Assembly (NCBI GenBank): GCA_048569615.1
Contig: JBLIRK010000001.1
Span: 18,896-82,895 of the forward strand
Length of the DNA: 64,000 nucleotides
Reading direction: 5' to 3'
Source: Thermoplasmatota archaeon
Lineage (GTDB): Archaea > Thermoplasmatota > Penumbrarchaeia > Penumbrarchaeales > Penumbrarchaeaceae
How positions within the stretch are numbered: position 1 is the stretch's first letter; each line of letters opens with the position of its first letter. Position numbers and translations under genes: made by a program. This document shows positions 5,113 to 52,456 of this stretch, one piece after another. The notes beneath the pieces were generated by a model. It worked only from the letters and a program-made list of their open reading frames with translations, did no database searches and was not told the origin of the DNA.

Positions 5113-5125
5113 TCTCTCTCAAATA

Positions 5126-5755: not shown

Positions 5756-5851
5756 ATCCCCCTCATATCTTGATAATAAATGGAATAATACAATAAATAA
5801 CTTTCATAAAAATCCCCTTTAAAATGTTAGGTATCCATTTGTGCTTGGTTA

Positions 5852-7618
5852 TCAAGGAGCAAGAGCGCAGAGGAGGTCGGATTCCAATCCCGCGGAGGAA
5901 GGTATCCTTCCTCTTTCCAGGGTCCTCAGAACATCCGACAGAGCGACCATGGACTGGATCGCCCGGATACCCTTTACGGTGTCGGCCTTGTCCGGATACG
6001 AGAGCAGCTGCTCCTTTCCGAGCCCCGTCAGCTCCGATGTGTAGCCCTGGACCAGGGAGTTCCTTATCCTCTCCTGCCACAGCGATCCTACCAGGGAGAG
6101 CTTGTAGATGTACTTGAAGGGCAGCTCCCTTCGCTCCATGACCCTCAGAACGGAGAAATCCTCCATCATCTCCGCATATCCTCCCTTGGCAAGGTTGTAA
6201 TCAAGGAAGAGGAGCTGGAGCTGCCTGCTCTCGTAGGGGAGGTCAGGATTGGAAAACAGCTGTCTGGCCGTCAGATACCTCGCCTTCATGAAGGAGTTCA
6301 TCAGCATGGATAGGTCCTTAAGGGGAAGGAACTTCTCCAGCTTCTCCTTCTCCACCCCGTAGAAATCCCATCCGAAGCCGTTCAGGATGTACCCTCCTTC
6401 GGAGTTGTGTTCTATCTTCTCAAGCCTGCAGTCCAGGGCAACGGGAAGGATAGGCGCTCCCCTGAATGACCTGATGGAGCCGAGCCTGGACCTCAGCTGT
6501 TTCTCCGATTTCATGAAACTGGTCCTGAACATATCCAGGGACAGCTCGTCCATCCCGTCCACCCTCGCGGGAATGACAGTCCTCTTGAGTGGTTTTAACC
6601 TCCTTCCGGTCTTTGGATTGACCACCTGCTTGTCCCCCAGGAGTCTGACGAATTCCCTCTTCAACTCCCCGAGATAATATGAGGAAGTACCTATGGCGGT
6701 CCCGATGTCCTCGATGTCCATGCGTGAGGGGGAGAACAGCTCGACGATATCCGTTCCAACCCTCTTGTGTCCCTCGGAATGGTGGAAGTCCTCCATGACA
6801 AGGCAGGAGTGAAGGGATCCAAGCATCCTGCCGAGCTCCACCGCCCTCCTGAAGGAGGTCCTATCCTTGGATAGCGACAGCTGAACCAGGAACCTCCTTG
6901 CCTTGTCCCCGTCCAGTTCGAGGAATGCTTTGGAGATATCTCCAAGGTCCTTCAGGAATGTCCTGAACGAGGGCTGGACCGAGCCGGTCTCTCTGGTGAG
7001 CTTCAACCAGGGCATTACCCTTCCTTTCCGCTCCCACATAGACATTCCAAGCAGTCTTGGAACGTGGTGACAGCCCATCGAATTGATCCTGGCATGCATG
7101 AAATATCCCATGGGGCTCTGTGCGAGTTTCCGGGACACCGAGAGCAGATACCTGTAACGATCAACCGTAATCCTGATCCCCAGGTCCCCGTTCTCCTTCA
7201 GGACCTCCAATCTGCTGCTCTCGGACCCGATATCCTCCTGATATCCCCCATCCCATATTCCGAAGGTCTGGTACTTGAGTCCGGAGCTCCCTGGATAATC
7301 TAGAGTATAACCGCTGTTGAAAAGGGAGAGCTGTGAAAGAACAAAGATCCTCAGGGCTCTGCTGTCAAGGTCGGATATCTCATCGCTGCCGGATCGGTCG
7401 AGCCAGATGTTCATATGATTCCCGCCGGACCCTACAAGAACCAGGCTTCCGCCCCCGTCGGGCAATTCGGCTTTCCCGAGGATCTCGACGGGATCGCGGT
7501 CGGAGAAATACCCAGAACTGGATGCGATATCCAGGGCTATTTCTCCGGCAGGCCCGATCGAATCTTCATCTTCTTCCAGCTCCGATACCTCCATTTCAGT
7601 CTGATTGACACTACCCAT
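5852..7618 (-). CDS. Large conserved hypothetical protein (588 aa), cytoplasmic, no recognisable motif
   Basis: Long intact ORF with balanced composition, an acidic N-terminus, and no TM or signal peptide. I do not recognise the family. Confidence 0.45.
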   Translation of the reverse strand: MGSVNQTEMEVSELEEDEDSIGPAGEIALDIASSSGYFSDRDPVEILGKAELPDGGGSLVLVGSGGNHMNIWLDRSGSDEISDLDSRALRIFVLSQLSLFNSGYTLDYPGSSGLKYQTFGIWDGGYQEDIGSESSRLEVLKENGDLGIRITVDRYRYLLSVSRKLAQSPMGYFMHARINSMGCHHVPRLLGMSMWERKGRVMPWLKLTRETGSVQPSFRTFLKDLGDISKAFLELDGDKARRFLVQLSLSKDRTSFRRAVELGRMLGSLHSCLVMEDFHHSEGHKRVGTDIVELFSPSRMDIEDIGTAIGTSSYYLGELKREFVRLLGDKQVVNPKTGRRLKPLKRTVIPARVDGMDELSLDMFRTSFMKSEKQLRSRLGSIRSFRGAPILPVALDCRLEKIEHNSEGGYILNGFGWDFYGVEKEKLEKFLPLKDLSMLMNSFMKARYLTARQLFSNPDLPYESRQLQLLFLDYNLAKGGYAEMMEDFSVLRVMERRELPFKYIYKLSLVGSLWQERIRNSLVQGYTSELTGLGKEQLLSYPDKADTVKGIRAIQSMVALSDVLRTLERGRIPSSAGLESDLLCALAP

Positions 7619-23582: not shown

Positions 23583-24077
23583 ATGGAGTGGTCAAAAGCC
23601 CATCCGGACATAAAGATCAGAAAGGCCGTTCCCAAGGATGCTGCGAAGCTCGCGGACTTCAGGGTCGGTTTCCTCAACGAATTCTTCGAGCACCCTGCCG
23701 ATGAGGAATCTGAGAGGCTCAGGGAGAACATCGCTCTCTATTACAGGGAGCACCTCGACAAAGGGGACTTCATCGCGCTTATCTGCGAGAAGGATAAAAA
23801 GCTGATAGCGTCCATCGGCATGATAATCCGTACTATGCCCCCGGTGTACGGGAACCTGATGAACGGAAAGCTCGGTTATCTGCTGAACATCCACACCCTA
23901 CCCGCATACCATGGTATGGGCATAACTGGGGAGCTCACGAGAATAATGGTCCAGGAAGCTAGGGAGCTGGATCTGGGATACATACATCTCCACACCGGAC
24001 TCGACGCGGTAAGGATCTACCAGAAGATGGGGTTTAAGGAGGTCACCGCAACGGAGCTCCGAATGGACCTGAAATGA
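23583..24077 (+). CDS. GNAT-family N-acetyltransferase
   Basis: Acetyl-CoA-binding motif A region ..LLNIHTLPAYHGMGITGELTRIM.. (Q/RxxGxG/A-like). About 165 aa. Confidence 0.7.
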   Translation: MEWSKAHPDIKIRKAVPKDAAKLADFRVGFLNEFFEHPADEESERLRENIALYYREHLDKGDFIALICEKDKKLIASIGMIIRTMPPVYGNLMNGKLGYLLNIHTLPAYHGMGITGELTRIMVQEARELDLGYIHLHTGLDAVRIYQKMGFKEVTATELRMDLK

Positions 24078-24179
24078 AGATCGTCAATTTCTCATCTCCT
24101 TCGTTGGCTCGCATTTTTATCATATTTTGAAATGTTTCCAATAATAAAGTTAATAACCCTAATACTTCTCACATTGCAC

Positions 24180-26330
24180 TTAAAAGTACCAATAGCTGTA
24201 GTCATCTTCTTCTACGGAGTTGGGTAGGTCGGTCTTACTGATCTCCATGAGAGAAGACAGCGATGTTGCTTTGACCATATTATAGGAAACCGTGTAGAGT
24301 GCATCATCGATGTAGAAGGATCTGTAGATCGTAGTAGGTCCGTATTCATCCCACCATCGACGACCTGTGATCCTGTCATCATCAGAATGGGTAATTTTAC
24401 CTCTGAGTTGAAATCCATTCTCCGGTGTCACATCGAAAACATACGCCCCTTCCCATGCAAATTCCCCGTAAGTGTTAGGGCTTACCTGGTATTTCGATAC
24501 CTCCAGTTCATACAGCTCTACGGGAATGACAAGCAGATTCCTGTGAAGACTGAACAAGAAAGCATGGGGATCATTCTGTGCAAGAGAGTAGGTTCCCCTG
24601 TCTCCTATGATATACTTTGATATCTCCTTGGGATTATTCACGTCCGTTACATCGAAAAGAGAGAGCTTGACACCCTGGAACCATGAAAATGTCCCTTCCT
24701 CGGCCAGGACCGTATCAAGACCAAGTCCAATCACATGATCATCATCATACGGATGGAGGTAATCGGAATAGCCAGGTATCTTCAATTCTCCGAGGATTAT
24801 CGGTAAGTAAGGATTGGAGAGATCGATAACAAAGAACGGATCAACTTTATCAAAGGTGACCAGATAAGCTCTTTCACCCATGAACCTGGCAGAGTATATC
24901 CTCTCTCCCGGGGCAATGTCCTTTATGCTTCCAACTATTTCGAGATCCATGTTAAGGACATAGATATGATTCCTTGCATCTCCCTCATCATACCTTGAAA
25001 CGTGACCTGTCGTTGTGGCTATTCGAAAATGATCATCATACTCTCCCATCGAGAACCTGTTCAATATATACCCCGGAACCTCGCCGCTGGCTCTGAAATT
25101 GATATAACCGCGATAGATCGATATCCTGTGTATTGCAGTCCTTTCCACATTGACATTCGTCCTATCATTGAATTCTTCCTCCTTTCCCTGCCATTGGTCA
25201 TAGAACGAGTCCATTTCCTGACGGGTAAGGTTATCCAAATAATCCCCCATAATATTGTCAATCCTTCCGATCCTTTCCGACCTGGAAAGGTCCATGTCCT
25301 TCGTTTCCTCTATAGGTATCTTTACTTCATCCGGAAGTATCGGAACCATGACCTCATCGATCTTCATCTCGATCTCCTCCACCCAGCTGATCATTTTGGT
25401 ATGGGTGATGTAAATATTGTCGAGGGAAACGTAGACCTCGGAAGACTTTCCGATCAGCATCATCCGGGTGTTCGGCGGTTCAGTGATCGAATTGATGTTA
25501 ATGGAGGTTATGCCGGTGAAGATGTAGCTTGTATCATATATGTCCGCATAGGAGATCTCATCGGCAGGAGCGGGCAGATCTGATTCATTATCTATGAGAC
25601 CGGTGTACCTCCTGGAAATTACGTAGTAATGTTCGCCTATGACCCTGGAAGTCACGTAGCTCCCTTCTATGACATCCTCCCTCAATAAAGTGGGGGTGTT
25701 CCTATCTTCGATCCGATATACATTTATGAGTATCTCGGGTTTTTCATAATGATCGTAAAAATACCAATCGTAGTAGTAATAATCGTTTCCCCTTGTCCCC
25801 ATAACGATCAGTTTATCTCCGCTCAGATAGATTTCATTTATACTGAAATCATCCATTTCAATTGTTGATACAATGCTCATTTCCTCGGCGGGATAGACGT
25901 CAAGGATGTAAACGCTCTTCCTGTCATTGGATACTATGAAAGCGTGATCACCATCGTTCTTTACAACATCCCCTTCATCAACTCCGCTCTCCTGGTTGTT
26001 TGTCGTTGAATAATCCCGAGCATCTCCCATGGATGGATCTGCTATGCAATAACAGCAATCGGCATAAGAGTCTATATAATCACGATAATAACTGGAACTG
26101 TAAAGGTTCTTATAAGTCCAATAACTGCCTTCCAGATCATCTTTCTCTTTGATGAATGATTGGAAATCATTGAAAGATCCAAAGGTTTGGAAGTCGGTCT
26201 CTTCATCACGTGGAATGATCATTTGATCCGGACTATACCTCGGGTCCTGGTCCTGAATCGATATTCCGCCTATTAGGATCGAACTGACGACCATGACCAA
26301 GACGCATGTGGAGACGATCTCTTCCTTCAT
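24180..26330 (-). CDS. Secreted beta-propeller repeat protein (716 aa)
   Basis: Signal or anchor sequence STCVLVMVVSSILIGGISI. Repeated ~45-aa units rich in Y/D/G/V through the body. No C-terminal TM. Confidence 0.5.
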   Translation of the reverse strand: MKEEIVSTCVLVMVVSSILIGGISIQDQDPRYSPDQMIIPRDEETDFQTFGSFNDFQSFIKEKDDLEGSYWTYKNLYSSSYYRDYIDSYADCCYCIADPSMGDARDYSTTNNQESGVDEGDVVKNDGDHAFIVSNDRKSVYILDVYPAEEMSIVSTIEMDDFSINEIYLSGDKLIVMGTRGNDYYYYDWYFYDHYEKPEILINVYRIEDRNTPTLLREDVIEGSYVTSRVIGEHYYVISRRYTGLIDNESDLPAPADEISYADIYDTSYIFTGITSININSITEPPNTRMMLIGKSSEVYVSLDNIYITHTKMISWVEEIEMKIDEVMVPILPDEVKIPIEETKDMDLSRSERIGRIDNIMGDYLDNLTRQEMDSFYDQWQGKEEEFNDRTNVNVERTAIHRISIYRGYINFRASGEVPGYILNRFSMGEYDDHFRIATTTGHVSRYDEGDARNHIYVLNMDLEIVGSIKDIAPGERIYSARFMGERAYLVTFDKVDPFFVIDLSNPYLPIILGELKIPGYSDYLHPYDDDHVIGLGLDTVLAEEGTFSWFQGVKLSLFDVTDVNNPKEISKYIIGDRGTYSLAQNDPHAFLFSLHRNLLVIPVELYELEVSKYQVSPNTYGEFAWEGAYVFDVTPENGFQLRGKITHSDDDRITGRRWWDEYGPTTIYRSFYIDDALYTVSYNMVKATSLSSLMEISKTDLPNSVEEDDYSYWYF

Positions 26331-26459
26331 TTCACTCCTCTCCCGGATACCAATTGGTTTCCCGGTTATAAATGAAGTGTGGAACAGATTTTACCGGTCT
26401 ATTTTAAAAAGACCTGTCCAATGCAAATGAGATGTTTCAGTTTAAGCGCAGATCCTATT

Positions 26460-26957
26460 TTAGCCGAATATGACCTGGAGCTTGAAACCGTCGGTTAAAA
26501 AATGTGTGATGATGATAACCCCTATCGCCATCATCGCTATCTTAACCGTAGGGTGGAAATTCTGCTTGACAAATGGGGCCATGAAGAACAGAAAGCTGAG
26601 CATCAATACGCCCATCGTGAAGAGTATGTCGGCGGTGTTCTGAAAGATATTTATTATGTTGTTATACCTCTCCAATGCATCCATATATTCATCATGGTCC
26701 CAATAATCGTTGGAACTTGGGGGGCTTGGATAATTTGATGCACCCATTACTATCACTGCAACCAGGATTAAAATGAACGGGAAGAAGAACAATCTCTTAT
26801 AGTTCCGCGTCAAGAAATCCCGATCTTGGAAATTTTCATTGGGGGGTGTTGATGGCGGATTCTCCCACCTGACACTCCTGCCTTCGATTGGATTAACCTT
26901 CCTTTTTCTAACTACTTTTCCATTTTCCACTTCATTCTCCTCATACATGGGATCCAC
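26460..26957 (-). CDS. Membrane protein (3 TM), hypothetical
   Basis: Three hydrophobic helices. No motif. Confidence 0.4.
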   Translation of the reverse strand: MDPMYEENEVENGKVVRKRKVNPIEGRSVRWENPPSTPPNENFQDRDFLTRNYKRLFFFPFILILVAVIVMGASNYPSPPSSNDYWDHDEYMDALERYNNIINIFQNTADILFTMGVLMLSFLFFMAPFVKQNFHPTVKIAMMAIGVIIITHFLTDGFKLQVIFG

Positions 26958-27171
26958 CTCTATCCTTGGCCGTTAAATAGATGGCTTTTCAATACAATTA
27001 TTATTTGTGGAATGATTTTTGTCGACTAATATAATATACCAAACCTATCCAATCCGAAATGGAACGAAAAAAACTCCTTACAAATTTCTTTCCAGTGGGA
27101 ACTATCTTTAATATCGCATTCAAATAATGATAATCTAGAGTATTATTCAGATAGAAATATGTATCAAGTTC

Positions 27172-28119
27172 GTGGATGTTTTCTCGGGGAAGTTGAAAAC
27201 AATGTCGAGAGCTGTTTCATTTCTTCTCATCGGTGTTTTAATGATTTCTATTTTAAACATCGAAAACAACGTTATAATTGGAGACGCCGACGCCGCTCCG
27301 GCGGAGGACCCCTCCTTCGTTATCGTGATCGAGGACATTTACGATCCCGAATTGAGATCCGACCCCTACATCCTGGAAGGAACGATGGTGGGAGCAGTGC
27401 ATATGGATTATTCCTGGGATGATGAGAGTATCCAATACCTGATCGTTGAGCTGTCGGTCTTTTGCGAAGGTTTCTCCTGCTGGATCGAACCGGATGAGAT
27501 ATTTTTCAGCAGAGCACAGAAGTTACAACGCTTCACGGTGATCATCGAGGCTCCCCTGAGCACTTCATCGAAGCTAACCAACGAGCTGAAGTTGGAGGGG
27601 AGCTGGCATTCGGATCCCGGAGAGCGTACCGGAACGATAGCTCCCGAGACCGTTCCCTTCAATGTGAAGGAGCACTACCACCACGAATTGGAGCCTGTTG
27701 ATACTTACGCCGAAGCGGATATTGGCGACACCGTGACTTTTCGATGCCTTATGATAAACAGGGGAAACGGGGATGACGTGGTGAGGGTGTATATAGTCAA
27801 TGATTATGTTTTCGAGGACCTGGGATGGACCATTGAGATAATCAACGGGACAGACCTCATCCCGGAGGGTGAGCGCAGGGAGCTGAAAGTAAAAATAACA
27901 ACCAGCAAAGCAACTCCCTCTGGTGTACATACAATGAGGCTCAGGATCGTCTCCAATGAGGCGGAGTCCAAGGGCGAAATAAGCTATGTGGTCGACCAGA
28001 ACCTCACTGTCAAGATAGGTGAAAATAAAGAATACTTAGCCTTCGGAACCCTGCCCATTATTTTTAGTCTCCTTTTCCTTCTAGGATCGTCCTCATTCAT
28101 TATTAGGAGGAGAAGATAG
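27172..28119 (+). CDS. Secreted protein with a C-terminal TM anchor ending RRRR
   Basis: Signal peptide VSFLLIGVLMISILNI. TM LAFGTLPIIFSLLFLLGSSSFII, then RRRR. Confidence 0.45.
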   Translation: MDVFSGKLKTMSRAVSFLLIGVLMISILNIENNVIIGDADAAPAEDPSFVIVIEDIYDPELRSDPYILEGTMVGAVHMDYSWDDESIQYLIVELSVFCEGFSCWIEPDEIFFSRAQKLQRFTVIIEAPLSTSSKLTNELKLEGSWHSDPGERTGTIAPETVPFNVKEHYHHELEPVDTYAEADIGDTVTFRCLMINRGNGDDVVRVYIVNDYVFEDLGWTIEIINGTDLIPEGERRELKVKITTSKATPSGVHTMRLRIVSNEAESKGEISYVVDQNLTVKIGENKEYLAFGTLPIIFSLLFLLGSSSFIIRRRR

Positions 28120-30359: not shown

Positions 30360-30433
30360 TGCAATTCATTATAAAAACAAGACCTGTGGGGAGGGAGATC
30401 GAAGTAAAACGAAAGTAAGTATCATTATAAAAT

Positions 30434-30880
30434 TCAATACGCTGAACTATATGATTTCGCTATGATATCTTTTTCCCAGACGACCTTGTTCTCGTCAATA
30501 TTGATTATTATTACCGAATATGTCTCGCCCTGGGTTAGGGCTGGAAGTCCGGTTGCGATTGTGAGAGTATCTCCGGCGTTCGAGGTTGTAGTGTCAGTCA
30601 GAGTCGTTGTATCAATCTTGATATCATAGTCTCCCCAGTTGATCTGTCCATATACGATCTCTATTTCGATCATGTCAGCCGTATTTGGTCCGGATACATC
30701 CGCATAGAGATTAACCTTAATGCCTAAGGTTTCAACCTCATCTTCCTCATGATGATAAGGTTCAGAAATTAGAAAAGCAACAAAGCATCCAATGAAAAAG
30801 AATGTAACGAATGAGAAAACCATCGGACATGATATATTCCCTACTTTCTCTTCATTATCGATATATTTCATACTAGACAT
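30434..30880 (-). CDS. Paralogue A of a small N-terminally membrane-anchored protein family associated with the rSAM/SPASM gene
   Basis: MSSMKY...TM FSFVTFFFIGCFVAFLI; core ..KVNLYADVSGPNTADMIEIEIVYGQINWGDYDIKIDTTTLTDTT..; C-terminus ..NKVVWEKDIIAKSYSSAY. About 75% nt identity to paralogue B over the 3' half. The track start 30988 was rejected. Confidence 0.6.
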   Translation of the reverse strand: MSSMKYIDNEEKVGNISCPMVFSFVTFFFIGCFVAFLISEPYHHEEDEVETLGIKVNLYADVSGPNTADMIEIEIVYGQINWGDYDIKIDTTTLTDTTTSNAGDTLTIATGLPALTQGETYSVIIINIDENKVVWEKDIIAKSYSSAY

Positions 30881-30930
30881 GATATTTACCGAATTAATAT
30901 GAATAAATATATACCTTCCCCTTTTATAAA

Positions 30931-31092
30931 TCAAGGATTTGATAATTCTGGTCTGTACACTGGCGTTCCATACATAGATTGGCCCCAAAGGAATACATAT
31001 GTTATTGAAAATCCGATAAGGAATCCCAACACCGCGCTAGAGATGATGAGTATCCAATTACCGACACTCATAGAAGTGAAATAACTGAACAT
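30931..31092 (-). CDS. Unannotated 53-aa small membrane peptide, paralogue of 31622..31768, with a conserved C-terminal YGTP[IV]YRP motif
   Basis: Hand translation: MFSYFTSMSVGNWILIISSAVLGFLIGFSITYVFLWGQSMYGTPVYRPELSNP. ATG start, TGA stop. Aligns with the other peptide over NWILIISSAVLGFLIGF/QWIILISTALVSFSIGF and MYGTPVYRP/HYGTPIYRP. Confidence 0.45.
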   Translation of the reverse strand: MFSYFTSMSVGNWILIISSAVLGFLIGFSITYVFLWGQSMYGTPVYRPELSNP

Positions 31093-31157
31093 TAATATAT
31101 CTTTTACTATTATAGTTAATATTCAACGATAATGGAAAAAAATTTTAACTTTCTCTG

Positions 31158-31595
31158 TCAATATGAAGAAACATATGATTTTGCAATGATATCTTTTTCC
31201 CAAACGACCTTGTTCATAACTATATCTATTATTTTAACATTGTATTCATCGCCCTGAGTGAGTGTCAGCCCAGTGCTGATGACCAGGGTCTCACCAGCGG
31301 TTGTAACGGTGGTATTTGTCAAGGTTGTCGTTCCTACTATGATCCGGTAGTCTCCCCATTCAATCGTCCCGGAAATAACCTCTATTTCAATCTTGTCTGC
31401 CCCTGCTATCTCTGTATCCTCGTAGAGATTGACTTTGATATTCAAAGGACGATGAAAAGGTTCAGATCCATCTTCCCATGGAAACACTATAACTCCTAAT
31501 ATAAATCCACCGATAAAAGATAATATTATTACTATTACAAATGCTATGGCCATCCATGGTGTCCAGATCCTTTCTCTTTCATAAACATCGACCAT
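31158..31595 (-). CDS. Paralogue B of the small membrane-anchored protein family
   Basis: TM MAIAFVIVIILSFIGGFILGVIVF. Core ..KVNLYEDTEIAGADKIEIEVISGTIEWGDYRIIVGTTTLTNTT.. C-terminus ..NKVVWEKDIIAKSYVSSY. Confidence 0.6.
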   Translation of the reverse strand: MVDVYERERIWTPWMAIAFVIVIILSFIGGFILGVIVFPWEDGSEPFHRPLNIKVNLYEDTEIAGADKIEIEVISGTIEWGDYRIIVGTTTLTNTTVTTAGETLVISTGLTLTQGDEYNVKIIDIVMNKVVWEKDIIAKSYVSSY

Positions 31596-31621
31596 ATATC
31601 AATCCCCAATTTTTCATTTTA

Positions 31622-31768
31622 TTATTTTATCGCTGGACGATATATCGGTGTACCATAGTGTTCCTCTGGCATATTGCTCGATAAGGCTATGAATGCGGCA
31701 CATGCGAATCCAATGGAAAAGCTAACCAACGCGGTTGATATCAATATTATCCACTGTGCTAACTTCAT
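31622..31768 (-). CDS. Unannotated 48-aa small membrane peptide immediately downstream of the rSAM/SPASM gene (candidate precursor peptide)
   Basis: Hand translation: MKLAQWIILISTALVSFSIGFACAAFIALSSNMPEEHYGTPIYRPAIK. ATG start, TAA stop. It lies 69 nt after the rSAM stop and 26 nt before paralogue B. Confidence 0.45.
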   Translation of the reverse strand: MKLAQWIILISTALVSFSIGFACAAFIALSSNMPEEHYGTPIYRPAIK

Positions 31769-31837
31769 GTATATACATACAATAATGGAAATTTATATCT
31801 ATCTAAGAGCTTTTACGAATGAATATTTTTAATATTA

Positions 31838-33190
31838 TTAATTATTCCTTGATATTTCATATAAGCATAGATCATTGTGTTTTAAATCCGTACCCTGGGT
31901 TACCATCGAGGTCACACATCCTCCCCTGCATGTTACCGAGTACTTGCATTTGGCGCAAAAGCCATCAAGTTCCCTTTCCTTCCTGTTGAAGGAGAATGTG
32001 TTTATGTTCCGCCATAGATCGAAAAAATCATGTGTCCTGATATTGCCGACAACGAAATTGTCGGGTTGTATGGGGCATCCTTTAATTTCCCCTTCAGGAC
32101 CTATTGCTGCATGATTCAATCCTGCCATGCAACCTTTCCATTCATGATCTCTTAGGTCATGATTGGAATGGTAACCGAGGCTGTCTCCCACGAAAACCTT
32201 GCATTTCCCTTCTAATTGATGTCTGAACTCTGATACCTTGTCAGCAAGTTTTACATATTCCCCCTTGCTCAAAGACATCTCGCTGGAGAGATTTCCCAAG
32301 GGGATTGCATAGAATATCTCCCAGGATGTTATCTTTTTTTGGATAATGAGTTCCTTGATATTATCAAGATCATCGAAGTTCTTCTTTGAGATGGAGGTCG
32401 TTACTCCGAAAGGGATTTTGTATTTTCGAAATAACGATATCGTATTCATGACCTTTTCGAAAACTCCCTCCATATTTCTAAAATCATCATGTACTTTACC
32501 TACTCCATCCAGACTTATGTGTATATTGAACGTATCCAATTCTTTTATCTTCGTGGCCATTTCATCATCAATCAATGTTCCATTGGTTGTTATGCCTACT
32601 TCGATACCGCTTTTCCTCGCTTCACCTAGGATCTGGAAGATGTCTGGTCTTATGAAGGGCTCCCCTCCAGATACATTTATTATGAACACTCCATTTTCAG
32701 CCCAGCCCTTCACGCAATCGATAGCCTCTGTAGTGGAGAGTTCTCTTTTTCTCTTCACATTGTCCCTGTTGGCGCAATGCGAGCATCGGAGGTTGCACTC
32801 ATTTGTGATGATCCAAGAGAGCTGATTTGGTGCTGAAAGAAATGGGTATTTTTCCTTACTTTTAAAGTATTTTGATTGAGGAATTTCTTTATCCATCTCG
32901 ATGAATCCAGATCCCTGAAGGACTGCAATCGAATTTAGGAAAAACACAGCATCGACAAAACGCGAACCCACTTTCTTCTCTTTATATAATTCGAATAGCT
33001 CTTCAATCGTTTTCTTCCCATCAATCAAAAATAGTATATCACTGATCTCCTCCCCGACATGGAGTAAGAATAGGTCTTCAGGATTGAAAATTGTATGACC
33101 AAATGATTCCTTTCTTATCTTAAGTTCTTTTTTTTGGGGGATCGAACTTGAATATTCCATTAGAAGTATCTTTTCAAACATTGTTATCAT
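31838..33190 (-). CDS. Radical SAM enzyme with an N-terminal PqqD-like RiPP-recognition element (RRE) and a C-terminal SPASM (auxiliary 4Fe-4S) domain
   Basis: rSAM cluster motif ITNECNLRCSHCANRD (CxxxCxxC). GGEPF. C-terminal Cys-rich SPASM region ..KGCMAGLNHAAIGPEGEIKGCP...FCAKCKYSVTCRGGCV.. N-terminal ~120 aa: ..GHTIFNPEDLFLLHVGEEISDILFLIDGKKTIEELFELYKEK.. resembles PqqD/RRE. Confidence 0.85.
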   Translation of the reverse strand: MITMFEKILLMEYSSSIPQKKELKIRKESFGHTIFNPEDLFLLHVGEEISDILFLIDGKKTIEELFELYKEKKVGSRFVDAVFFLNSIAVLQGSGFIEMDKEIPQSKYFKSKEKYPFLSAPNQLSWIITNECNLRCSHCANRDNVKRKRELSTTEAIDCVKGWAENGVFIINVSGGEPFIRPDIFQILGEARKSGIEVGITTNGTLIDDEMATKIKELDTFNIHISLDGVGKVHDDFRNMEGVFEKVMNTISLFRKYKIPFGVTTSISKKNFDDLDNIKELIIQKKITSWEIFYAIPLGNLSSEMSLSKGEYVKLADKVSEFRHQLEGKCKVFVGDSLGYHSNHDLRDHEWKGCMAGLNHAAIGPEGEIKGCPIQPDNFVVGNIRTHDFFDLWRNINTFSFNRKERELDGFCAKCKYSVTCRGGCVTSMVTQGTDLKHNDLCLYEISRNN

Positions 33191-33205
33191 CTATCTTTTT
33201 ATTTT

Positions 33206-33682
33206 TTAATCTCCCCACCCGTAACTGGCGTAGACGTAATCCCTCCAGACCAGGTCGTCCCAGTAATCATATATGGTTACCTCGTAGTATTCATCGGATT
33301 CTATATCCATATCGTAGATATGGAAAACCATCTCGTCTCCGGAATATGACCAGTAGTCGTAATAGGTGTCGGGATGGACCCTTTCGTTACCGACATAGAC
33401 CTGATAGTCGCTCCAGTAGATCCTTCCGTAATAAACGTATATGACCAGTGTGTCATCCTCGGAATAGAGGTTGGCATTAATATCCCAGTCTTCCCCGTAA
33501 TAATCATCATCGTAGCTCTCCTCCCAGGGATCATCGGGAAATGCGACATAAACCACTATTACGGACACCACGATCCCTGAAACGAAAAATGCCGGAAGCA
33601 GGAAGAAGAAGACCTTCAGCCACATTGGGTCCTGCCCACCAGATTCCCTCTCCATGGAAAGAGCATCGAAAGGATAGTTCAA
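33206..33682 (-). CDS. Paralogue C (divergent) of the small membrane-anchored protein family, with an ectodomain extremely rich in Tyr/Asp/Trp
   Basis: TM LKVFFFLLPAFFVSGIVVSVIVVYVAF. ..INANLYSEDDTLVIYVYYGRIYWSDYQVYVGNERV.. aligns to ..KVNLYxD...IEIE...G.I.WGDY.I.. of A/B. C-terminus ..LVWRDYVYASYGWGD resembles VVWEKDIIAKSY. Confidence 0.55.
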   Translation of the reverse strand: MNYPFDALSMERESGGQDPMWLKVFFFLLPAFFVSGIVVSVIVVYVAFPDDPWEESYDDDYYGEDWDINANLYSEDDTLVIYVYYGRIYWSDYQVYVGNERVHPDTYYDYWSYSGDEMVFHIYDMDIESDEYYEVTIYDYWDDLVWRDYVYASYGWGD

Positions 33683-33697: not shown

Positions 33698-36600
33698 CTA
33701 TGCCGCCCTGGTCCTGGCCAGAAGGTCCTCCCTTGCCGTCCTTATAACGAAGTTAAGCCTGTTGTAGAGGTTGACCTCCGATGTGCCGGGATCCATATCC
33801 AGATACAGGACATTGAGGTCTGGATATTTCTTCTTCAGGGCCTTCTCAACCCCTTTCCCGATGATATGGTTCGATATGCATCCGAAGGGCTGAACGCATA
33901 TTACGTTGTTTACATCATCCTCGGCGAAGGCACCGATCTCCCCGGGTATGAGCCATCCCTCACCGAACTGGTCAACAAGGCTGACGACGTCCCTGGACTT
34001 CTTTGCCAGGGACCCGACGTAGTGGTTCCTTCTGTAGTACTTGAACTTGGCCCTGACCTTCTCGTACATCCTCATGTAGTATCTGGCGATCCACTCCTCG
34101 GGATAGGAGAGCACCGTCTTCAATCCTCTATTACCGGTATCGTTATCGGCATGGAACCTTACGTTCAAATATTCCTGGGCGAAGAAATCAGTGATAGGAG
34201 GCACTATCACATCGATGCCCTGCTCCACCATGTAATCGACGATGAAGAAATGTCCGAAGGGATTGTACTTGGCATAGATCTCTCCCACCAGGCCTATGGT
34301 CGGATGCTCCTCATCGTCCGTTTCCACCCGGTTGAACTCGAGAACCGCCTGCTCCAGGAGCTCCGGGAGCTCCCCCTCCCTCCCGAACTCTATCGCCCTG
34401 CCCGCCATCTGTATGTACTTGTCGGAAAGATCCGAGGCCTCGCCCTTGTTGATCTCCCTGACGGCAGTGGAATAGTACATCTGCATCACTGCATCCGCAA
34501 ACAGGACGCCGTGGAGACCCTGGAGCACCATTTTCCTCTTGTTTATCCTGAATCCCGGCTGGTAGTTGAGCTGCTTGCTGGACATGGACAGCGTTATCAC
34601 CGGCACATCCTCGAAACCGGCCGATACGAGTCCCTTCTGCAGGAGAGAGAGGTAGGAGGAGGCACGGCATTGGCCTCCCGTCTGGGTTATCCCTGCGGCA
34701 ACGTCCCTTTGATCGTACCTGCCGGAAAGTAGAGCCTTGAGGATATCACCGATGACTATCACCGCCGGATAGCATATCTCGTTGTTGCAGTACTTCAAAC
34801 CGACTTCCACCGATTCCCTGTCAGGAGGAGGAAGCACCTCCAGGTCGTATCCCAATGAAGAGAACGATGATATCAGGAGGGGGGAGTAGAACCTGGAGAA
34901 GAAGGGAGCGATTATCTTCCTTTTCCTGTCCTGGATCGTATAGGCCGGCGTGACCTTTCTTTTCATGGGCCGGAACCTCTTCCCGAGCCCCCTTATCTCC
35001 AGGGACTCCATCATGGACCTGAGCCTCAACCGTATAGAGCCGGGGGAGCTCACCTCGTCGATCCTCAGGAGAGTGTGGTTCTTGCCCGCCTCGGCAAGCA
35101 AGGTCCTGGCCTCATCGCAAACGAGCGCATCCGGACCGCAGCCGAAGGAATTCAACTGAACTACCTCGACGTTGTCCTGCTCCTTTGCCCACTGGACCGC
35201 TTTGTATACCCTGTTGGGATACTGCCACTGGGTGAGCACTCCCACATCGGCAAGGGTTCTGTCGGAAACGGGAACCGAATCCTCGGTGATCACATCCGCT
35301 CCCAGACCTGCCAGCATCTCCGTGAGCTTGTGGTTGATGAGGTGATCGATATGATAGGGTCTTCCCACCAGAAGGACCACCAGCCTTTTTTCCTTTTTAG
35401 CCTCCGAGATGATCCCAAGGGCCTTCTCCCTCACGCTCTCCTTGTAGGATATCTGCTCCCGCAAAGCCTTCTCGAAGGCTTCCCTTGCCTTCTTTCCCTC
35501 CACCCCGAGGCCCTTGAGGTACTTCATGCAGCCTTTCCTGAGCAATCTCCTGTCCTTGAATGAGATAGTTGGAGAATCGAAGGGTATTCCCAGACGCTCC
35601 TCAGGATCCAAGGCGCTTCTTACAACATCGGAGTAGCCGGAAACGACAGGGCAGTTGAATGAATCCAGCTGACCCTCGAACTCCTGCTCCTCGAACAACA
35701 CCATCGGTAAGAATATCCTGTCAACCTTCATCTCCGCAAGTTTCTTTACGTGGCCGTTGACGAGCTTTGCGGGGAAACAGATGTTCTCCGACATCGTGCT
35801 CCTTGTCCCCAGCTCGTTTATCTCCGGGGTGGATGGAGGAGAGAGGACGAACTCGAAACCGCTCTCCCGAAGAAGAGTGGCCCAGAAGGGGAAGTTCTCG
35901 TATATGTTCAGGACCCTCGGTATTCCTATCCTTCCAAGGGGGAGTCCTTCCGGTGAAAGCTTGCGGTCGAAGAGTAGATCGAGCTTGATATCGGCCAGGT
36001 TGCAACCCTTTCTCGTACCCGTTCCTGCGTTATTGAAGATCTTCTCGCACTTGTTCCCGGTGTAGAAGAGCTTGCCGTTCCCGAAGGTGAACTGGGTGAC
36101 AGTGCAGCTGTTCCGGCAGCCGCCGCATCTGATGAAACACGCGGTATTCTCCGTTGCCATGTCAAGACTGCCGAAACCGACAAATGTGGATGCCTGGGCA
36201 TCCTTTGAATACGAATCCGCTGCGGTCAAAGCCGCTCCGTATGCTCCCATGAGCTCAGGTGAATCGGAGCAGATCAGTTCCTTTCCGAGTAACAGCTCGA
36301 ATGCCCTGTGAACGGCAGGATTCCTGAACGTGCCCCCTTGGACTACGATATTATCACCAAGAACATCCGGGTCCTTGATCTTCAGGACCTTGTAAAGGCA
36401 GTTCTTCACCACAGAGAACGCCAATCCTGCCGAGATATCCGGGACCGAGGCCCCCTCCCTCAATGCCTGCTTCACTTTGGAGTTCATGAAAACGGTGCAT
36501 CTTGTGCCCAGGTCGTAGGGTCTTTTGGATTCGCAGGCCATCCTGGTAAAATCCTCGACGCTCTCTCCGAGGTTGTTGGCGAATGTCTCTATGAACGAGC

Positions 36601-37975
36601 CGCATCCGGAGGAGCAGGCCTCGTTTATCTCAATATCATTTATCACGCCCGCATGGATAAAGATGGCCTTCATGTCCTGACCGCCTATGTCGAGGATGAA
36701 GCTCGCATCATCCGCGAACTCCCTCGCGGCCCTGAAATGGGCCAGGGTCTCGACCATTCCGATATCCAAGCCGTAGGCGGCCCTGATCAGGTCTTCGCCG
36801 TAACCCGTCACAGCTGTCTTGGCCACATCAAGCGCTATTCCAACCTCGCAGGCCCTTTCATCAAGCTCTTCCAGGCCCTTCCTGACCGTCCCTATGGGAT
36901 CGCCGCCGTTGGGGGAGTAGAAGCTGAATGCAATGCCGCCTTCTCCATCCGCCAGGACGATTTTTGTCGTTGTGGATCCGGAATCTATTCCAAGGAAGCA
37001 TTTTCCATCCTTCAGGTCACCCACCTCCACGGTCCTTACTATCGGCCTCATCCTCCTCGAATCCCATTCCAGGAACTCGTTACGGTCCCCGAAAAGCGGG
37101 TCCAGCCTGCTGCCCAGGAAGTCGTTCGAATCGGGCTCTCTTCCCAGTTTGTCCTCTAATTCGGAGACAGTTACCTCCATTCTATCTATGTCATCGTACA
37201 TTGCCGTCCCCAGGGCCGGAAACAGCTCCGGATGCTTCGGGTCCGCGACATCCGCTTCCGGGACCTCCAGGACCTCTAGGTAATATCTCCTCAGTTCCGG
37301 CAGGAAGGTGAAGGGTCCTCCGCAGAACAGGACCTTTGGTCTGGGATCATATCCCCTCGACAGGCTTGAAACAGTCTGAAGGGCAACAGAATGGAAGATG
37401 GATGATGCAATCTCCTCCTTCGATATCTTCCTAGCCATTAGGTTTTGTACATCGGTCTTTGCGAAGACGCCGCATCTGGATGCCATGCTGTGATGTCTTT
37501 CGGCCTTCTTCGCCAGGTCGTTAAGGTCAACGAGGGATACATTCAGAAGTGTCGCCATCTGGTCTATGAAAGCCCCCGTGCCTCCAGCGCAACTTCCGTT
37601 CATTCTGATATCTATCCTCATCCTGTCATCGAAGAAGATCATCTTGGAATCTTCCCCTCCAACGTCTATGAGGGTCCTCACATCCGGATGGCGCCTCCTC
37701 ACCACCTCAGCCGCGGCGACAACTTCCTGAACGAAGGGGATCCCGTACCTCTCGGAAACGCCGAAACCGGCGGAGCCCGTGACAGATATGCTGAGCCTGG
37801 TATCTCCAAGCTCCAGTTTTGCATCTTCCAGCATGTCGATCAGTGTCTTGGATACCTGGGCGTTATGCCTTCTGTAATCCCTGTATAGAATTCCATTTCC
37901 ATGGTCCAGGACCACGATCTTGGCTGTTGTGGACCCAAGATCTATGCCGGCCCTCAACGCCTTTTGATCTGCCAA
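33698..37975 (-). CDS. Giant fusion protein: two BadF/BadG/BcrA/BcrD (HgdC-type) acetate/sugar-kinase-fold ATPase domains plus a C-terminal HgdB/D-component-like (DUF2229) domain ('CoA-substrate-specific enzyme activase' family)
   Basis: GIDLGSTTAKIVVLD and FLGIDSGSTTTKIVLADGEG phosphate-1 motifs. Cys pairs typical of the bridging [4Fe-4S] site. Long C-terminal domain. 1425 aa, no internal stops. Confidence 0.75.
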   Translation of the reverse strand: MADQKALRAGIDLGSTTAKIVVLDHGNGILYRDYRRHNAQVSKTLIDMLEDAKLELGDTRLSISVTGSAGFGVSERYGIPFVQEVVAAAEVVRRRHPDVRTLIDVGGEDSKMIFFDDRMRIDIRMNGSCAGGTGAFIDQMATLLNVSLVDLNDLAKKAERHHSMASRCGVFAKTDVQNLMARKISKEEIASSIFHSVALQTVSSLSRGYDPRPKVLFCGGPFTFLPELRRYYLEVLEVPEADVADPKHPELFPALGTAMYDDIDRMEVTVSELEDKLGREPDSNDFLGSRLDPLFGDRNEFLEWDSRRMRPIVRTVEVGDLKDGKCFLGIDSGSTTTKIVLADGEGGIAFSFYSPNGGDPIGTVRKGLEELDERACEVGIALDVAKTAVTGYGEDLIRAAYGLDIGMVETLAHFRAAREFADDASFILDIGGQDMKAIFIHAGVINDIEINEACSSGCGSFIETFANNLGESVEDFTRMACESKRPYDLGTRCTVFMNSKVKQALREGASVPDISAGLAFSVVKNCLYKVLKIKDPDVLGDNIVVQGGTFRNPAVHRAFELLLGKELICSDSPELMGAYGAALTAADSYSKDAQASTFVGFGSLDMATENTACFIRCGGCRNSCTVTQFTFGNGKLFYTGNKCEKIFNNAGTGTRKGCNLADIKLDLLFDRKLSPEGLPLGRIGIPRVLNIYENFPFWATLLRESGFEFVLSPPSTPEINELGTRSTMSENICFPAKLVNGHVKKLAEMKVDRIFLPMVLFEEQEFEGQLDSFNCPVVSGYSDVVRSALDPEERLGIPFDSPTISFKDRRLLRKGCMKYLKGLGVEGKKAREAFEKALREQISYKESVREKALGIISEAKKEKRLVVLLVGRPYHIDHLINHKLTEMLAGLGADVITEDSVPVSDRTLADVGVLTQWQYPNRVYKAVQWAKEQDNVEVVQLNSFGCGPDALVCDEARTLLAEAGKNHTLLRIDEVSSPGSIRLRLRSMMESLEIRGLGKRFRPMKRKVTPAYTIQDRKRKIIAPFFSRFYSPLLISSFSSLGYDLEVLPPPDRESVEVGLKYCNNEICYPAVIVIGDILKALLSGRYDQRDVAAGITQTGGQCRASSYLSLLQKGLVSAGFEDVPVITLSMSSKQLNYQPGFRINKRKMVLQGLHGVLFADAVMQMYYSTAVREINKGEASDLSDKYIQMAGRAIEFGREGELPELLEQAVLEFNRVETDDEEHPTIGLVGEIYAKYNPFGHFFIVDYMVEQGIDVIVPPITDFFAQEYLNVRFHADNDTGNRGLKTVLSYPEEWIARYYMRMYEKVRAKFKYYRRNHYVGSLAKKSRDVVSLVDQFGEGWLIPGEIGAFAEDDVNNVICVQPFGCISNHIIGKGVEKALKKKYPDLNVLYLDMDPGTSEVNLYNRLNFVIRTAREDLLARTRAA

Positions 37976-52339: not shown

Positions 52340-52456
52340 TGGCGGGTCCGAGGGGATTCGAACCCCCGGCCATCTGGTTAAAAGCCAGACGCTCTTTCTA
52401 GGGAAGATGGCGGACACTAAACCACCATTCAACCTACCTAGCTGAGCTACGGACCC
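52340..52456 (-). tRNA. tRNA-Lys (anticodon UUU) with an encoded CCA and a putative ~40-nt non-canonical intron in the D-arm
   Basis: Minus strand: GGGTCCG-TA-GCTC-AGCTAGGTA-[40 nt]-GAGC-G-TCTGG-CTTTTAA-CCAGA-TGGCC-GGGGG-TTCGAAT-CCCCT-CGGACCC-G-CCA. The acceptor and anticodon stems pair perfectly. Intron coordinates are about 52395..52434. Confidence 0.6.

Follow-up and report, generated by a model that had tools for sequence, protein, structure and literature searches.

Does the radical SAM (rSAM) enzyme encoded in a compact gene block of a Thermoplasmatota MAG modify one of its gene-encoded neighbours and, if so, which one and by what chemistry? The block occupies positions 30434-33682 of the window (the whole stretch of DNA that was analysed, 64,000 nucleotides). 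The original prediction read it as a modification locus whose enzyme acts on two small peptides or on three paralogous membrane-anchored proteins. The peptides turn out to be by far the better candidates, on account of a C-terminal tail that they share with membrane proteins encoded beside homologous enzymes.

The gene block and its setting

The ORF list places six co-directional genes on the minus strand of the block; strand and co-directionality are as originally described, the number (given as seven) is not. The gaps, in order from paralogue C to paralogue A, are 15, 69, 26, 65 and 50 nt, matching the 15-69 nt first reported, and the unit of peptide plus paralogue is indeed present twice.

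33206-33682, minus strand: paralogue C, 158 aa (divergent; shares 25-28% identity with A and B)
31838-33190, minus strand: RRE-radical SAM-SPASM enzyme, 450 aa (Pfam, homologue alignment, AF2 model, Foldseek)
31622-31768, minus strand: pep2, 48 aa, predicted substrate (ORF; tail common to peptides beside homologous enzymes)
31634-31657, minus strand: pep2 motif codons, Y-G-T-P-I-Y-R-P (sequence read and alignment)
31158-31595, minus strand: paralogue B, 145 aa (N-terminal helix and Ig-like beta-sandwich, the archaeal type IV pilin fold)
30931-31092, minus strand: pep1, 53 aa, predicted substrate (ORF; tail motif comparison)
30949-30972, minus strand: pep1 motif codons, Y-G-T-P-V-Y-R-P (sequence read and alignment)
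30434-30880, minus strand: paralogue A, 148 aa, pilin-fold membrane protein (ATG at 30880; 54% identical to B)
30380-33650, no strand: low-GC island holding exactly these six genes (GC and GC3 contrast)

The island has a GC content of 0.39 against 0.53; values along the block run from 0.31 to 0.46 and in the flanks from 0.50 to 0.57, the sharp drop coinciding with the block. The rSAM gene, A and B have GC3 values of 0.37-0.43, the flanking genes of 0.70-0.72; paralogue C (0.60) is less AT-rich than the other block genes. The whole block is probably a horizontally acquired low-GC island, and no convincing direct repeats flank it.

The most likely start codon of paralogue A is the ATG at 30880 rather than the TTG at 30988, so that the gene does not overlap pep1. 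NCBI locus tags assign ACMUIE_00205 to A, ACMUIE_00210 to B and ACMUIE_00220 to C. Only 00215 remains for the enzyme, so pep1 and pep2 appear to be unannotated, as had been claimed; database searches gave no entry for either peptide.

An RRE-rSAM-SPASM enzyme

The enzyme combines an RRE-like N-terminal domain (residues ~18-95), an rSAM core (residues 127-281, with C132, C136 and C139) and a SPASM domain (residues 354-442) with seven cysteines (C354, C372, C412, C415, C421, C425 and C442). Its rSAM motif (CNLRCSHC) and C-terminal SPASM region, both noted at the outset, are borne out by scores above the Pfam cut-offs (Radical_SAM, 95.6 bits; SPASM, 31.8 bits), and the CxxxCxxC motif and all seven SPASM cysteines are invariant in 37 family members. 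In the AF2 model (pLDDT 89) the N-terminal domain is predicted to fold as beta-beta-beta followed by three helices, in the manner of an RRE. Structurally the enzyme most resembles SuiB, SkfB and CteB, SuiB being the top Foldseek match over the full length (TM 0.72), and profile alignments to SuiB and CteB reach into the N-terminal domain. An RRE is supported by predicted fold and alignment; a profile search with PF05402 (PqqD) gave no match to the domain. The overall layout is that of a typical peptide maturase, as proposed. (It is not archaeal-only, however: Patescibacteria and Peregrinibacteria carry the enzyme too.)

Assignment to a function is another matter. No curated NCBIfam equivalog cut-off is reached, all matches falling far below: NirJ2 scores 186 and AhbD 175 bits (cut-offs of 500), TIGR04103 166 (725), MftC (TIGR03962) 159 (265) and TIGR03913 153 (592). 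The family joins MftC/AhbD-like enzymes in 59 of 60 neighbor-joining bootstrap replicates, and no cross-linking maturase groups with it. Judged by these sub-cut-off scores and this placement, the chemistry is not transferable by homology.

A conserved membrane-anchored tail and its proposed modification

Pep2 and pep1 each consist of a single hydrophobic helix and a C-terminal tail (HYGTPIYRPAIK and MYGTPVYRPELSNP, respectively). A membrane peptide or protein with the tail Y-G-[TAV]-P-x-[YHF]-R-P adjoins the enzyme gene on the same strand in 15 of 15 assessable loci, that is, distinct loci with readable flanks and an enzyme at least 41% identical (the window, L001/4, L002, L003, L005-L009, L083/84, L085, L086, L088, L166 and L167). 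Their hosts are DPANN-like archaea, Methanoperedens/Methanosarcinales, Patescibacteria and the source MAG. Where checked directly, enzyme and tail ORFs are ~6 nt (L001) or 1 nt (L002, L003) apart, or overlap (L005, L006, L007). The identical regular expression found nothing in ~150 control loci of other rSAM/SPASM families (1.5 Mb, six-frame translation), and several tail-peptide matches lie on contigs equal in length to enzyme-bearing ones. The peptides of the window thus end in a motif found only beside homologous enzymes, and the pairing is more than chance. A point against their being substrates is that they lie downstream of the enzyme gene rather than upstream; L088, too, has one copy in this position.

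The tail directly follows the last transmembrane helix and conforms to x-Y-G-[T/A/V]-P-x-[Y/H/F]-R-P-x(1-5), with one longer case. Y, G, P, R and P show no variation in the alignment; the residue before Y-G does vary (K, T, M, H, L, S or E). Its carriers are single-helix peptides of 42-56 aa, multi-helix proteins of 70-186 aa, and proteins of 318-349 aa with an ectodomain and four helices, and conservation across them is confined to the tail. An exhaustive profile search of 1.84 billion representatives yielded only 27 matches (cluster representatives), each ending at the protein C-terminus and none named. The substrate family has neither a Pfam or NCBIfam model nor a name in the databases searched, and to that extent its original description as novel stands.

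Enzyme and tail-bearing membrane substrate quite probably constitute a two-gene module: one gene would specify a cytoplasmic RRE-radical SAM-SPASM enzyme, and the other, in one or more copies, a membrane-anchored substrate conserved only in its C-terminal tail. In the window the module would comprise two substrate peptides, interleaved with the pilin-fold paralogues B and A, with C upstream of the enzyme. Across the family loci the enzyme recurs with a tail-bearing peptide or protein, and with A, B and C only in the window. Enzyme and substrates aside, no neighbor recurs in more than three of the compared loci. Taken together, the sequence comparisons point to an apparently undescribed protein-modification system, an rSAM/SPASM maturase with a gene-encoded substrate.

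The RRE domain would dock the substrate tail; a 5'-deoxyadenosyl radical, generated from SAM bound to a [4Fe-4S] cluster, would take a hydrogen within the tail, and two SPASM auxiliary clusters would finish the redox chemistry. Our best guess at the outcome, a tentative one, is that a C-C (or C-O) bond forms within the molecule and links the invariant Tyr to a residue further downstream: perhaps the invariant Arg, which would resemble RrrB, or else residue 3 at its beta-carbon, which would resemble triceptides. The product would be a small rigid ring still joined to its membrane anchor. Thioether formation, another of the chemistries initially suggested, is excluded by the lack of Cys in the conserved tail. 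As to biological role, we infer that a modified membrane protein is more likely than a released natural product, since neither a protease nor an exporter gene accompanies the module consistently in the compared loci. A point against the proposal is the predicted topology of carriers of the Methanoperedens type, which have a signal peptide, an ectodomain and four helices: it would put the tail outside the cell, so that a cytoplasmic Fe-S enzyme would need to act on it before membrane insertion.

The same enzyme-substrate pair could instead carry out a splicease-like excision of a tyramine equivalent at the invariant x-Y-G, a reading that we consider possible though on the unlikely side; the membrane-anchored tail would then contain an alpha-keto-beta-amino amide, which is a pharmacophore of protease inhibitors. 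An invariant Y-G after a variable residue follows the XYG logic of spliceotides (PMC11414181, PMC11626197), and leader-independent modification of proteins by spliceases is known (PMC11414181). The splicease models TIGR04103 and TIGR03913 are among the better NCBIfam matches. The archaeal rSAM/SPASM proteins that lie nearest outside the family, as judged by mean distance, have those two models as their best NCBIfam matches and membrane proteins as neighbors, which often end in x-Y-G-V-Y. On the other hand, NirJ2, AhbD and MftC score similarly or higher, the family joins splicease-like groups in none of the 60 bootstrap replicates, and known spliceases rely on a separate Y protein or on a leader-peptide helix, not on a fused RRE (PMC11414181). 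Moreover, splicing would leave the other invariant residues (P4, R7 and P8) unexplained, and in the sister group the Gly is replaceable by Asn or Asp.

PqqE and MftC act on Tyr-containing peptides with the assistance of a PqqD-like RRE. This precedent, the placement with MftC/AhbD-like enzymes and an MftC score that comes closer to its own cut-off, as a fraction, than that of any other listed match would suit a tail that is turned into a small molecule or redox cofactor derived from the peptide, its membrane anchor being a leader that is later cleaved. This is improbable: MftC chemistry requires a C-terminal Tyr, which the tail Tyr is not, no tailoring gene, whether for a protease, an oxidase, a glycosyltransferase or another enzyme, accompanies the module consistently, and large multi-domain membrane carriers are hard to square with a disposable leader.

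That the enzyme acts on A, B and C, not on the small peptides, is more doubtful still. They are co-directional with the enzyme, tightly spaced and within one compositional island, are paralogous as stated (amino acid identity of 54% for A-B and 28% for A-C; the ~75% DNA identity of A and B holds for the last 105 nt, the overall value being 58%), and share a conserved aromatic C-terminal motif. However, in no other family locus is the enzyme accompanied by a homologue of A, B or C, which makes them unlikely substrates. A search of 5.8 billion proteins turned up only eight homologues, and none of those looked at has an rSAM neighbor; P0127 is one of three tandem Pilin_N genes, an array with neither tail motif nor rSAM gene. 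The C-terminal motif, VVWEKDIIA, also occurs in unlinked pilin homologues and is thus a pilin-domain feature rather than a recognition tag. A, B and C have the fold of archaeal type IV pilins (Pilin_N/PF07790), and the globular domain of one annotated Thermoplasmatota type IV pilin (P0124) is 60% identical to that of A; unlike their relatives, A, B and C have no canonical class III signal peptide (…G/VSPVIAVILMVAITVVLAG), and a profile search with PF07790 matched none of the three.

Least credible is that the rSAM enzyme works on something other than a peptide, for example as an AhbD/NirJ-like modifier of tetrapyrroles, and that the small ORFs beside it are unrelated or spurious: NirJ2 and AhbD give the top NCBIfam scores, and one homologue is labeled heme synthase by one database source, but those scores are about one-third of their cut-offs, the RRE is fused, no heme-pathway genes lie nearby, and the small-ORF motif is conserved across domains of life exclusively beside this enzyme family.

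Comparison with known systems

MftC, the partner of MftB and MftA, is likewise an rSAM/SPASM protein; it relies on a PqqD-like RRE, its target is a Tyr close to the C-terminal end of a short peptide, and it is within the set that groups with the present family. It differs in its separate MftB (the RRE is fused here), in a substrate ending in Tyr (there is no G-V-Y terminus here), and in the accompanying mftD, mftE and mftF genes, which are absent here; the TIGR03962 score is below cut-off.

Spliceases and their spliceotides (PlpX/RhaX; TIGR04103 and TIGR03913, the latter 'GDL-motif trio') resemble the module in their rSAM/SPASM enzyme, in a Tyr-Gly site preceded by a residue that varies, in modifying proteins as well as peptides (PMC11414181), and, for the binary types, in consisting of two components, enzyme and substrate. 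The present enzyme is set apart by its fused RRE, its low splicease-model scores and its bootstrap placement, and its motif runs past XYG to P-x-[YHF]-R-P. A published survey found PlpX-like enzymes in 189 bacterial genera, according to a review (PMC10849128); the splicease sources consulted make no mention of an archaeal or membrane-tail type.

The architecture is shared with SuiB/StrB (the streptide Lys-Trp cyclase), CteB, SkfB, AlbA and the RaS-RiPP enzymes, including the Arg-Tyr cross-linker RrrB, RRE-fused maturases that likewise combine an N-terminal RRE, an rSAM core and a seven-Cys SPASM domain; a further common feature is a substrate encoded next door that bears a short conserved motif. 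SuiB is the best full-length structural match and its sequence alignment extends into the RRE, but sequence identity to these maturases is only 16-20%. The putative substrates here are membrane-anchored, a transmembrane helix or whole membrane protein taking the place of a soluble leader, their motif contains no Cys, Lys or Trp, and the module has no conserved exporter or peptidase gene; its hosts are mainly archaea and CPR bacteria.

The gene block and its low-GC island

By ORF calling, the span 30434-33682 comprises six co-directional minus-strand ORFs separated by gaps of 15, 69, 26, 65 and 50 nt. (The original prediction spoke of seven genes in the block, and itself named six.)

Genes of the block (called as ORFs except where marked)
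33206-33682, minus strand, paralogue C
31838-33190, minus strand, radical SAM enzyme, 450 aa
31622-31768, minus strand, small membrane peptide pep2, 48 aa
31158-31595, minus strand, paralogue B
30931-31092, minus strand, small membrane peptide pep1, 53 aa
30434-30880, minus strand, paralogue A, 148 aa if read from its likely ATG start codon at 30880 (DNA read directly)

With this likely start, A and pep1 do not overlap. The locus tags ACMUIE_00205, 00210 and 00220 belong to A, B and C, and the remaining room fits the enzyme alone, so that pep1 and pep2 are apparently unannotated. This carries a lesson for annotation, since these are the decisive genes and they seem to be absent from the public annotation of the genome.

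The block is a sharp compositional island, with a GC content of 0.31-0.46 inside as against 0.50-0.57 outside. The genes for A, B and the enzyme have a GC3 of 0.37-0.43 and the flanking genes one of 0.70-0.72, with C in between (0.60). The borders of the island show no convincing flanking repeats and no tRNA, and the genes around it (a fused BcrAD_BadFG/DUF2229 activase, a GyrI-like protein, a glyoxalase, a methyltransferase and a DUF3795 protein) are unrelated to those of the block. The first of these, a 1425-aa fused BcrAD_BadFG ATPase/DUF2229 'CoA enzyme activase' (33698-37975, minus strand), lies on the same strand as C and ends 15 nt upstream of it; its GC3 of 0.70 is host-like and a functional link to the island is not evident. 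A second stretch of lower GC lies at 24000-27300 of the window (0.44 overall, 0.34 at 27000-27299) and encodes a 716-aa Beta_propel protein (minus strand, 24180-26330) besides uncharacterised ORFs, one of which, at 27172-28119, specifies a 315-aa putative surface protein. At 52350-52425 (minus strand) there is an Rfam tRNA match of 35.9 bits covering model positions 7-64 of 71, at which ARAGORN reports no tRNA; this may represent a tRNA fragment, or else an archaeal tRNA that is atypical or has an intron.

The enzyme, its tail-bearing partners and the paralogues

The enzyme has the RRE-radical SAM-SPASM architecture originally ascribed to it. Pfam places Radical_SAM at residues 127-281 (95.6 bits, above cut-off) and SPASM (PF13186) at residues 354-416 (31.8 bits, cut-off 21.5). 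The CxxxCxxC motif for the [4Fe-4S] cluster that cleaves SAM, CNLRCSHC, at C132/C136/C139 is invariant in an alignment of 37 full-length homologues, as are seven SPASM cysteines (C354, C372, C412, C415, C421, C425 and C442) in the pattern expected for two auxiliary clusters. Profile searches had been proposed as a check on both accessory domains: SPASM is borne out, while the PqqD HMM (PF05402) finds no match in the enzyme in the Pfam scan, and the RRE assignment rests on the AF2 model (pLDDT 89), on its full-length superposition on SuiB and on profile-sequence alignments to SuiB and CteB that take in the N-domain. In the model this domain (residues 24-93, high pLDDT) consists of strands 24-27, 31-36 and 41-46 followed by helices 47-55, 62-71 and 77-93; three strands and then three helices are, as modelled, the topology of an RRE (a PqqD-like winged helix). 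Among PDB structures SuiB matches best, along the entire length and with a TM of 0.72; SkfB, CteB, PqqE and anSME come next.

No NCBIfam equivalog is reached at its cut-off (NirJ2 185.7, AhbD 174.7, nif11-class maturase 3 166.5, MftC 159, GDL-trio maturase 153.3 bits, each score falling well short), and the enzyme's family is without a curated model. A search of 5.8 billion proteins yields ~60 full-length relatives of ~450 aa at roughly 38-54% identity, from uncultured archaea, Methanoperedens, Nanoarchaeota and Patescibacteria; outside this set similarity falls abruptly to generic rSAM/SPASM proteins. The family spans DPANN-like archaea, Methanoperedens, CPR bacteria and a single Thermoplasmatota island.

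What accompanies the enzyme is a C-terminal motif. In 15 of 15 assessable loci, a same-strand ORF adjoining the enzyme gene ends in Y-G-[TAV]-P-x-[YHF]-R-P (the tail), with Y, G, P, R and P invariant, T, A or V at position 3, and Y, H or F at position 6. The proteins that carry it are diverse: single-helix peptides of 42-52 aa (loci L001, L002 with two copies, L003, L083/84 and L085), multi-helix proteins of up to 186 aa (L005, L006, L009, L086, L088 and, cut short where its contig stops, L166), and proteins of 318-349 aa with signal peptide, ectodomain and four helices (L007, L008 and L167, from Methanoperedens and Methanosarcinaceae). The same tail ends pep1 (…MYGTPVYRPELSNP) and pep2 (…HYGTPIYRPAIK), both of which lie downstream of the enzyme; a downstream copy also occurs in L088.

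Linkage of the motif to the enzyme family is exclusive. A regular expression for the tail has no match in ~150 control loci of other rSAM/SPASM families (1.5 Mb, six-frame translation). A peptide-profile search of the 5.8 billion proteins returns 16 matches, all with the tail and none meaningfully named, several of them on contigs of the same size as enzyme-bearing contigs, and HMMER, run exhaustively against 1.84 billion representatives, returns only 27, each ending at the protein C-terminus. Scans of peptides, paralogues and carrier proteins against Pfam and NCBIfam assign no family. In an all-against-all clustering of neighbours at 14 loci no gene other than enzyme and substrates recurs in more than three, and this, together with the linkage of the tail, defines the conserved unit as the enzyme plus a tail-bearing membrane protein. 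An adjacent, gene-encoded candidate substrate with a family-specific motif is among the marks of an RRE-dependent rSAM/SPASM maturase. On this basis pep1 and pep2 are genuine genes and the strongest candidates for the substrate, and enzyme and predicted membrane-anchored substrates appear to form a small and sharply defined family. The original observation was largely correct, and the reading given to it holds for the enzyme and for the peptides as putative substrates.

LemA was considered as a conserved partner and rejected, being found in two DPANN-like loci only, where its gene lies directly upstream of the substrate peptide(s) (L001, 4196-4831; L002, 4082-4657). An M48 peptidase gene downstream in L001 (7677-8591) is likewise not a conserved neighbour across the other loci. 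Locus L003 holds a second gene clustering with rSAM enzymes (854-2242), ~3.7 kb upstream of the family enzyme.

The paralogues A, B and C were the other proposed substrates, and this part of the prediction is not sustained. They have the pilin fold, an N-terminal helix followed by a beta-sandwich head domain, with protein identities of 54% between A and B and 25-28% between C and either. (The 75% DNA identity noted for A and B applies to the last 105 nt only and drops to 58% overall.) Only eight relatives are found in the 5.8-billion-protein database. Three of these, annotated as type IV pilins, carry a canonical class III signal peptide, and their head domains reach as much as 60% identity to that of A; one relative lies within a tandem array of three pilin genes that has no rSAM gene and no tail motif. 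Archaeal type IV pilins among the homologues (database entries P0124, P0127 and P0128) carry the canonical G|VSPVIAVILMVAIT, whereas A, B and C have a different hydrophobic N-terminus in its place and no match to Pilin_N (PF07790) at E<1. The aromatic C-terminal motif to which attention had been drawn, VVWEKDIIA, also occurs in pilins unlinked to any rSAM gene. It follows that A, B and C do not accompany the enzyme as conserved partners, and it is unlikely that they are its substrates; conserved co-occurrence across genomes, which had been put forward as a check, holds for the tail-bearing peptides and proteins and fails for A, B and C, which are absent from the other loci. The way they alternate with the peptides is peculiar to the island in the window. 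Homology between A/B/C and the ectodomain of the Methanoperedens carriers, as a split or fused arrangement, was also considered and rejected, since BLASTP finds nothing (E 6.4). Two further entries, P0125 (ACMUIE_09840, from a different contig of this MAG) and P0126, contain two tandem A/B/C head domains behind lipoprotein-like N-termini (…AAGC and …LSGC), so that this domain is also used outside the pilin context.

Candidate chemistry and membrane topology

Tyrosine-centred radical chemistry is carried out by PqqE, MftC, RrrB, triceptide cyclases and spliceases, and by analogy the invariant Tyr of the tail is the obvious candidate for its reactive residue. The RRE domain would dock the tail, and the 5'-deoxyadenosyl radical would then start chemistry within it, assisted by the SPASM clusters. 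We tentatively favour a cross-link from Tyr to Arg7 or to residue 3, because RRE-fused SPASM maturases are overwhelmingly cross-linkers and because the residues of the motif are evenly placed from one tail to the next and include two prolines. The tail contains two aromatic-X-X triplets, Y-G-[TAV] and [YHF]-R-P; in triceptides the ring of such an aromatic-X-X motif is cross-linked to the beta-carbon of residue 3. No triceptide maturase model is among the best 25 NCBIfam matches to the enzyme.

The main alternative, which we consider less likely, is splicease-like excision of tyramine at the invariant x-Y-G, which would leave an alpha-keto-beta-amide. Spliceotides are defined by an XYG splice motif, and loss of tyramine (C8H9NO, -135.06 Da) generates the alpha-keto-beta-amide product (PMC11414181, PMC11626197). 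That motif is present here, x-Y-G being invariant in every tail of both tail alignments (A6 and A7) and in the further profile matches. By mean distance, the nearest sequences outside the family belong to archaeal rSAM/SPASM proteins that lack an RRE; in NCBIfam these match the splicease models TIGR04103 and TIGR03913 best, and their neighbours, mostly membrane proteins, end in x-Y-[G/N/D]-V-[Y/F]-[K/S/T]. Against this, the enzyme itself scores far below the cut-offs that would place it in a PlpX-like clade (TIGR04103, 166.5 vs 725 bits; TIGR03913, 153.3 vs 591.75 bits), and a bipartition joining the family to splicease-like sequences appears in 0/60 neighbour-joining bootstraps. The same tree, a crude neighbour-joining one built without characterised reference sequences, groups the family with MftC/AhbD-like sequences in 59/60 replicates. 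Mean distances point to the splicease-like archaeal group and the bootstrap to the MftC/AhbD-like set; since the two conflict, derivation of the chemistry from phylogeny was rejected and none is assigned by homology. Thioether (sactipeptide or ranthipeptide) chemistry, one of the options first offered, is ruled out because the conserved tail contains no Cys in any member.

The RRE-less archaeal enzymes and their neighbours constitute a sister system (loci L012-L033, L046, L056, L074, L093-L099, L111, L112, L126 and L143; for example L013 3739-4122 and 4037-4468, and L027 5448-5961). The enzymes, of 336-343 aa, come from Asgard archaea, Thermoplasmata and others, often with a ~430-aa methyltransferase-TPR protein adjacent, and the proteins carrying the corresponding tails match no Pfam family above cut-off. 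In a Thermoplasmatales MAG (L017), an 85-aa peptide at 5603-5860 with three repeats, …DVYKAGT(D/Y)YGT(V/I)S…, lies between two rSAM/SPASM genes (4355-5500 and 6031-7023). At L041 (5297-7488, Flavobacterium pectinovorum), three tandem peptides of 56-58 aa start M-G-x-x-(M)P/M-Y-G-A/V-A-I-R and contain a GDL motif; the rSAM/SPASM protein downstream scores 538 bits with TIGR03913 and 422 with TIGR04103, which places the Y-G site of that rSAM/SPASM family at the N-terminus.

The helix count of the Methanoperedens-type carriers puts their tail, by prediction, outside the cell, so that modification would be needed before membrane insertion. No protease or exporter is conserved with the module in the comparison of neighbours at 14 loci, and the product therefore probably stays on its membrane anchor.

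Significance and comparison with known systems

The rSAM/SPASM maturases are a major source of new peptide chemistry, and the present enzyme and candidate substrate form a new pair, with only five invariant substrate residues and with no curated model or name in the databases searched. The carriers of the tail extend from peptides of 42 aa to ectodomain proteins of 349 aa, which points to membrane proteins as the target and away from a secreted natural product; such a target would be unusual for this enzyme class. The hosts (reduced-genome DPANN and CPR, and Methanoperedens) are also unusual, and such modifications are almost unexplored in them. A more speculative thought, which we consider improbable as it stands, is that this family is the first of an archaeal and CPR-wide class of rSAM/SPASM enzymes that act on membrane proteins, at their juxtamembrane C-terminal tails, instead of on released peptides. 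The tail would become a group that is reactive or redox-active and stays tethered to the membrane surface, either a spliced alpha-keto-beta-amide or a cross-linked cofactor derived from Tyr. If that were true, this family and its RRE-less sister would represent a new kind of post-translational membrane-protein tag in DPANN, Asgard, Thermoplasmatota and ANME-2d archaea.

Literature searches combining LemA with rSAM, and DPANN with SPASM and RiPP, retrieve no description of the enzyme-tail system. The same holds for the tail motif in the literature consulted, in which the splicease survey, covering 189 bacterial genera according to a review (PMC10849128), is represented by reviews, so that an earlier mention there is possible.

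Measured against established groups, the enzyme falls, on sequence criteria, outside the spliceases, MftC, AhbD/NirJ and the sactisynthases. It scores below the mycofactocin cut-off (TIGR03962, 159 vs 265 bits), no separate MftB or mftD/E/F genes neighbour it in the family loci or the window flanks, and the mycofactocin substrate ends G-V-Y, whereas the tails here end R-P-x(1-5) and not in Tyr. NirJ2 (185.7 bits) and AhbD (174.7 bits) both fall short of cut-offs of 500, and the flanking genes are unrelated. The predicted working principle is that of an rSAM/SPASM maturase with a gene-encoded substrate; the enzyme is closest in architecture to the SuiB, CteB and AlbA-type enzymes, and the tails are closest in motif logic to the spliceotides.
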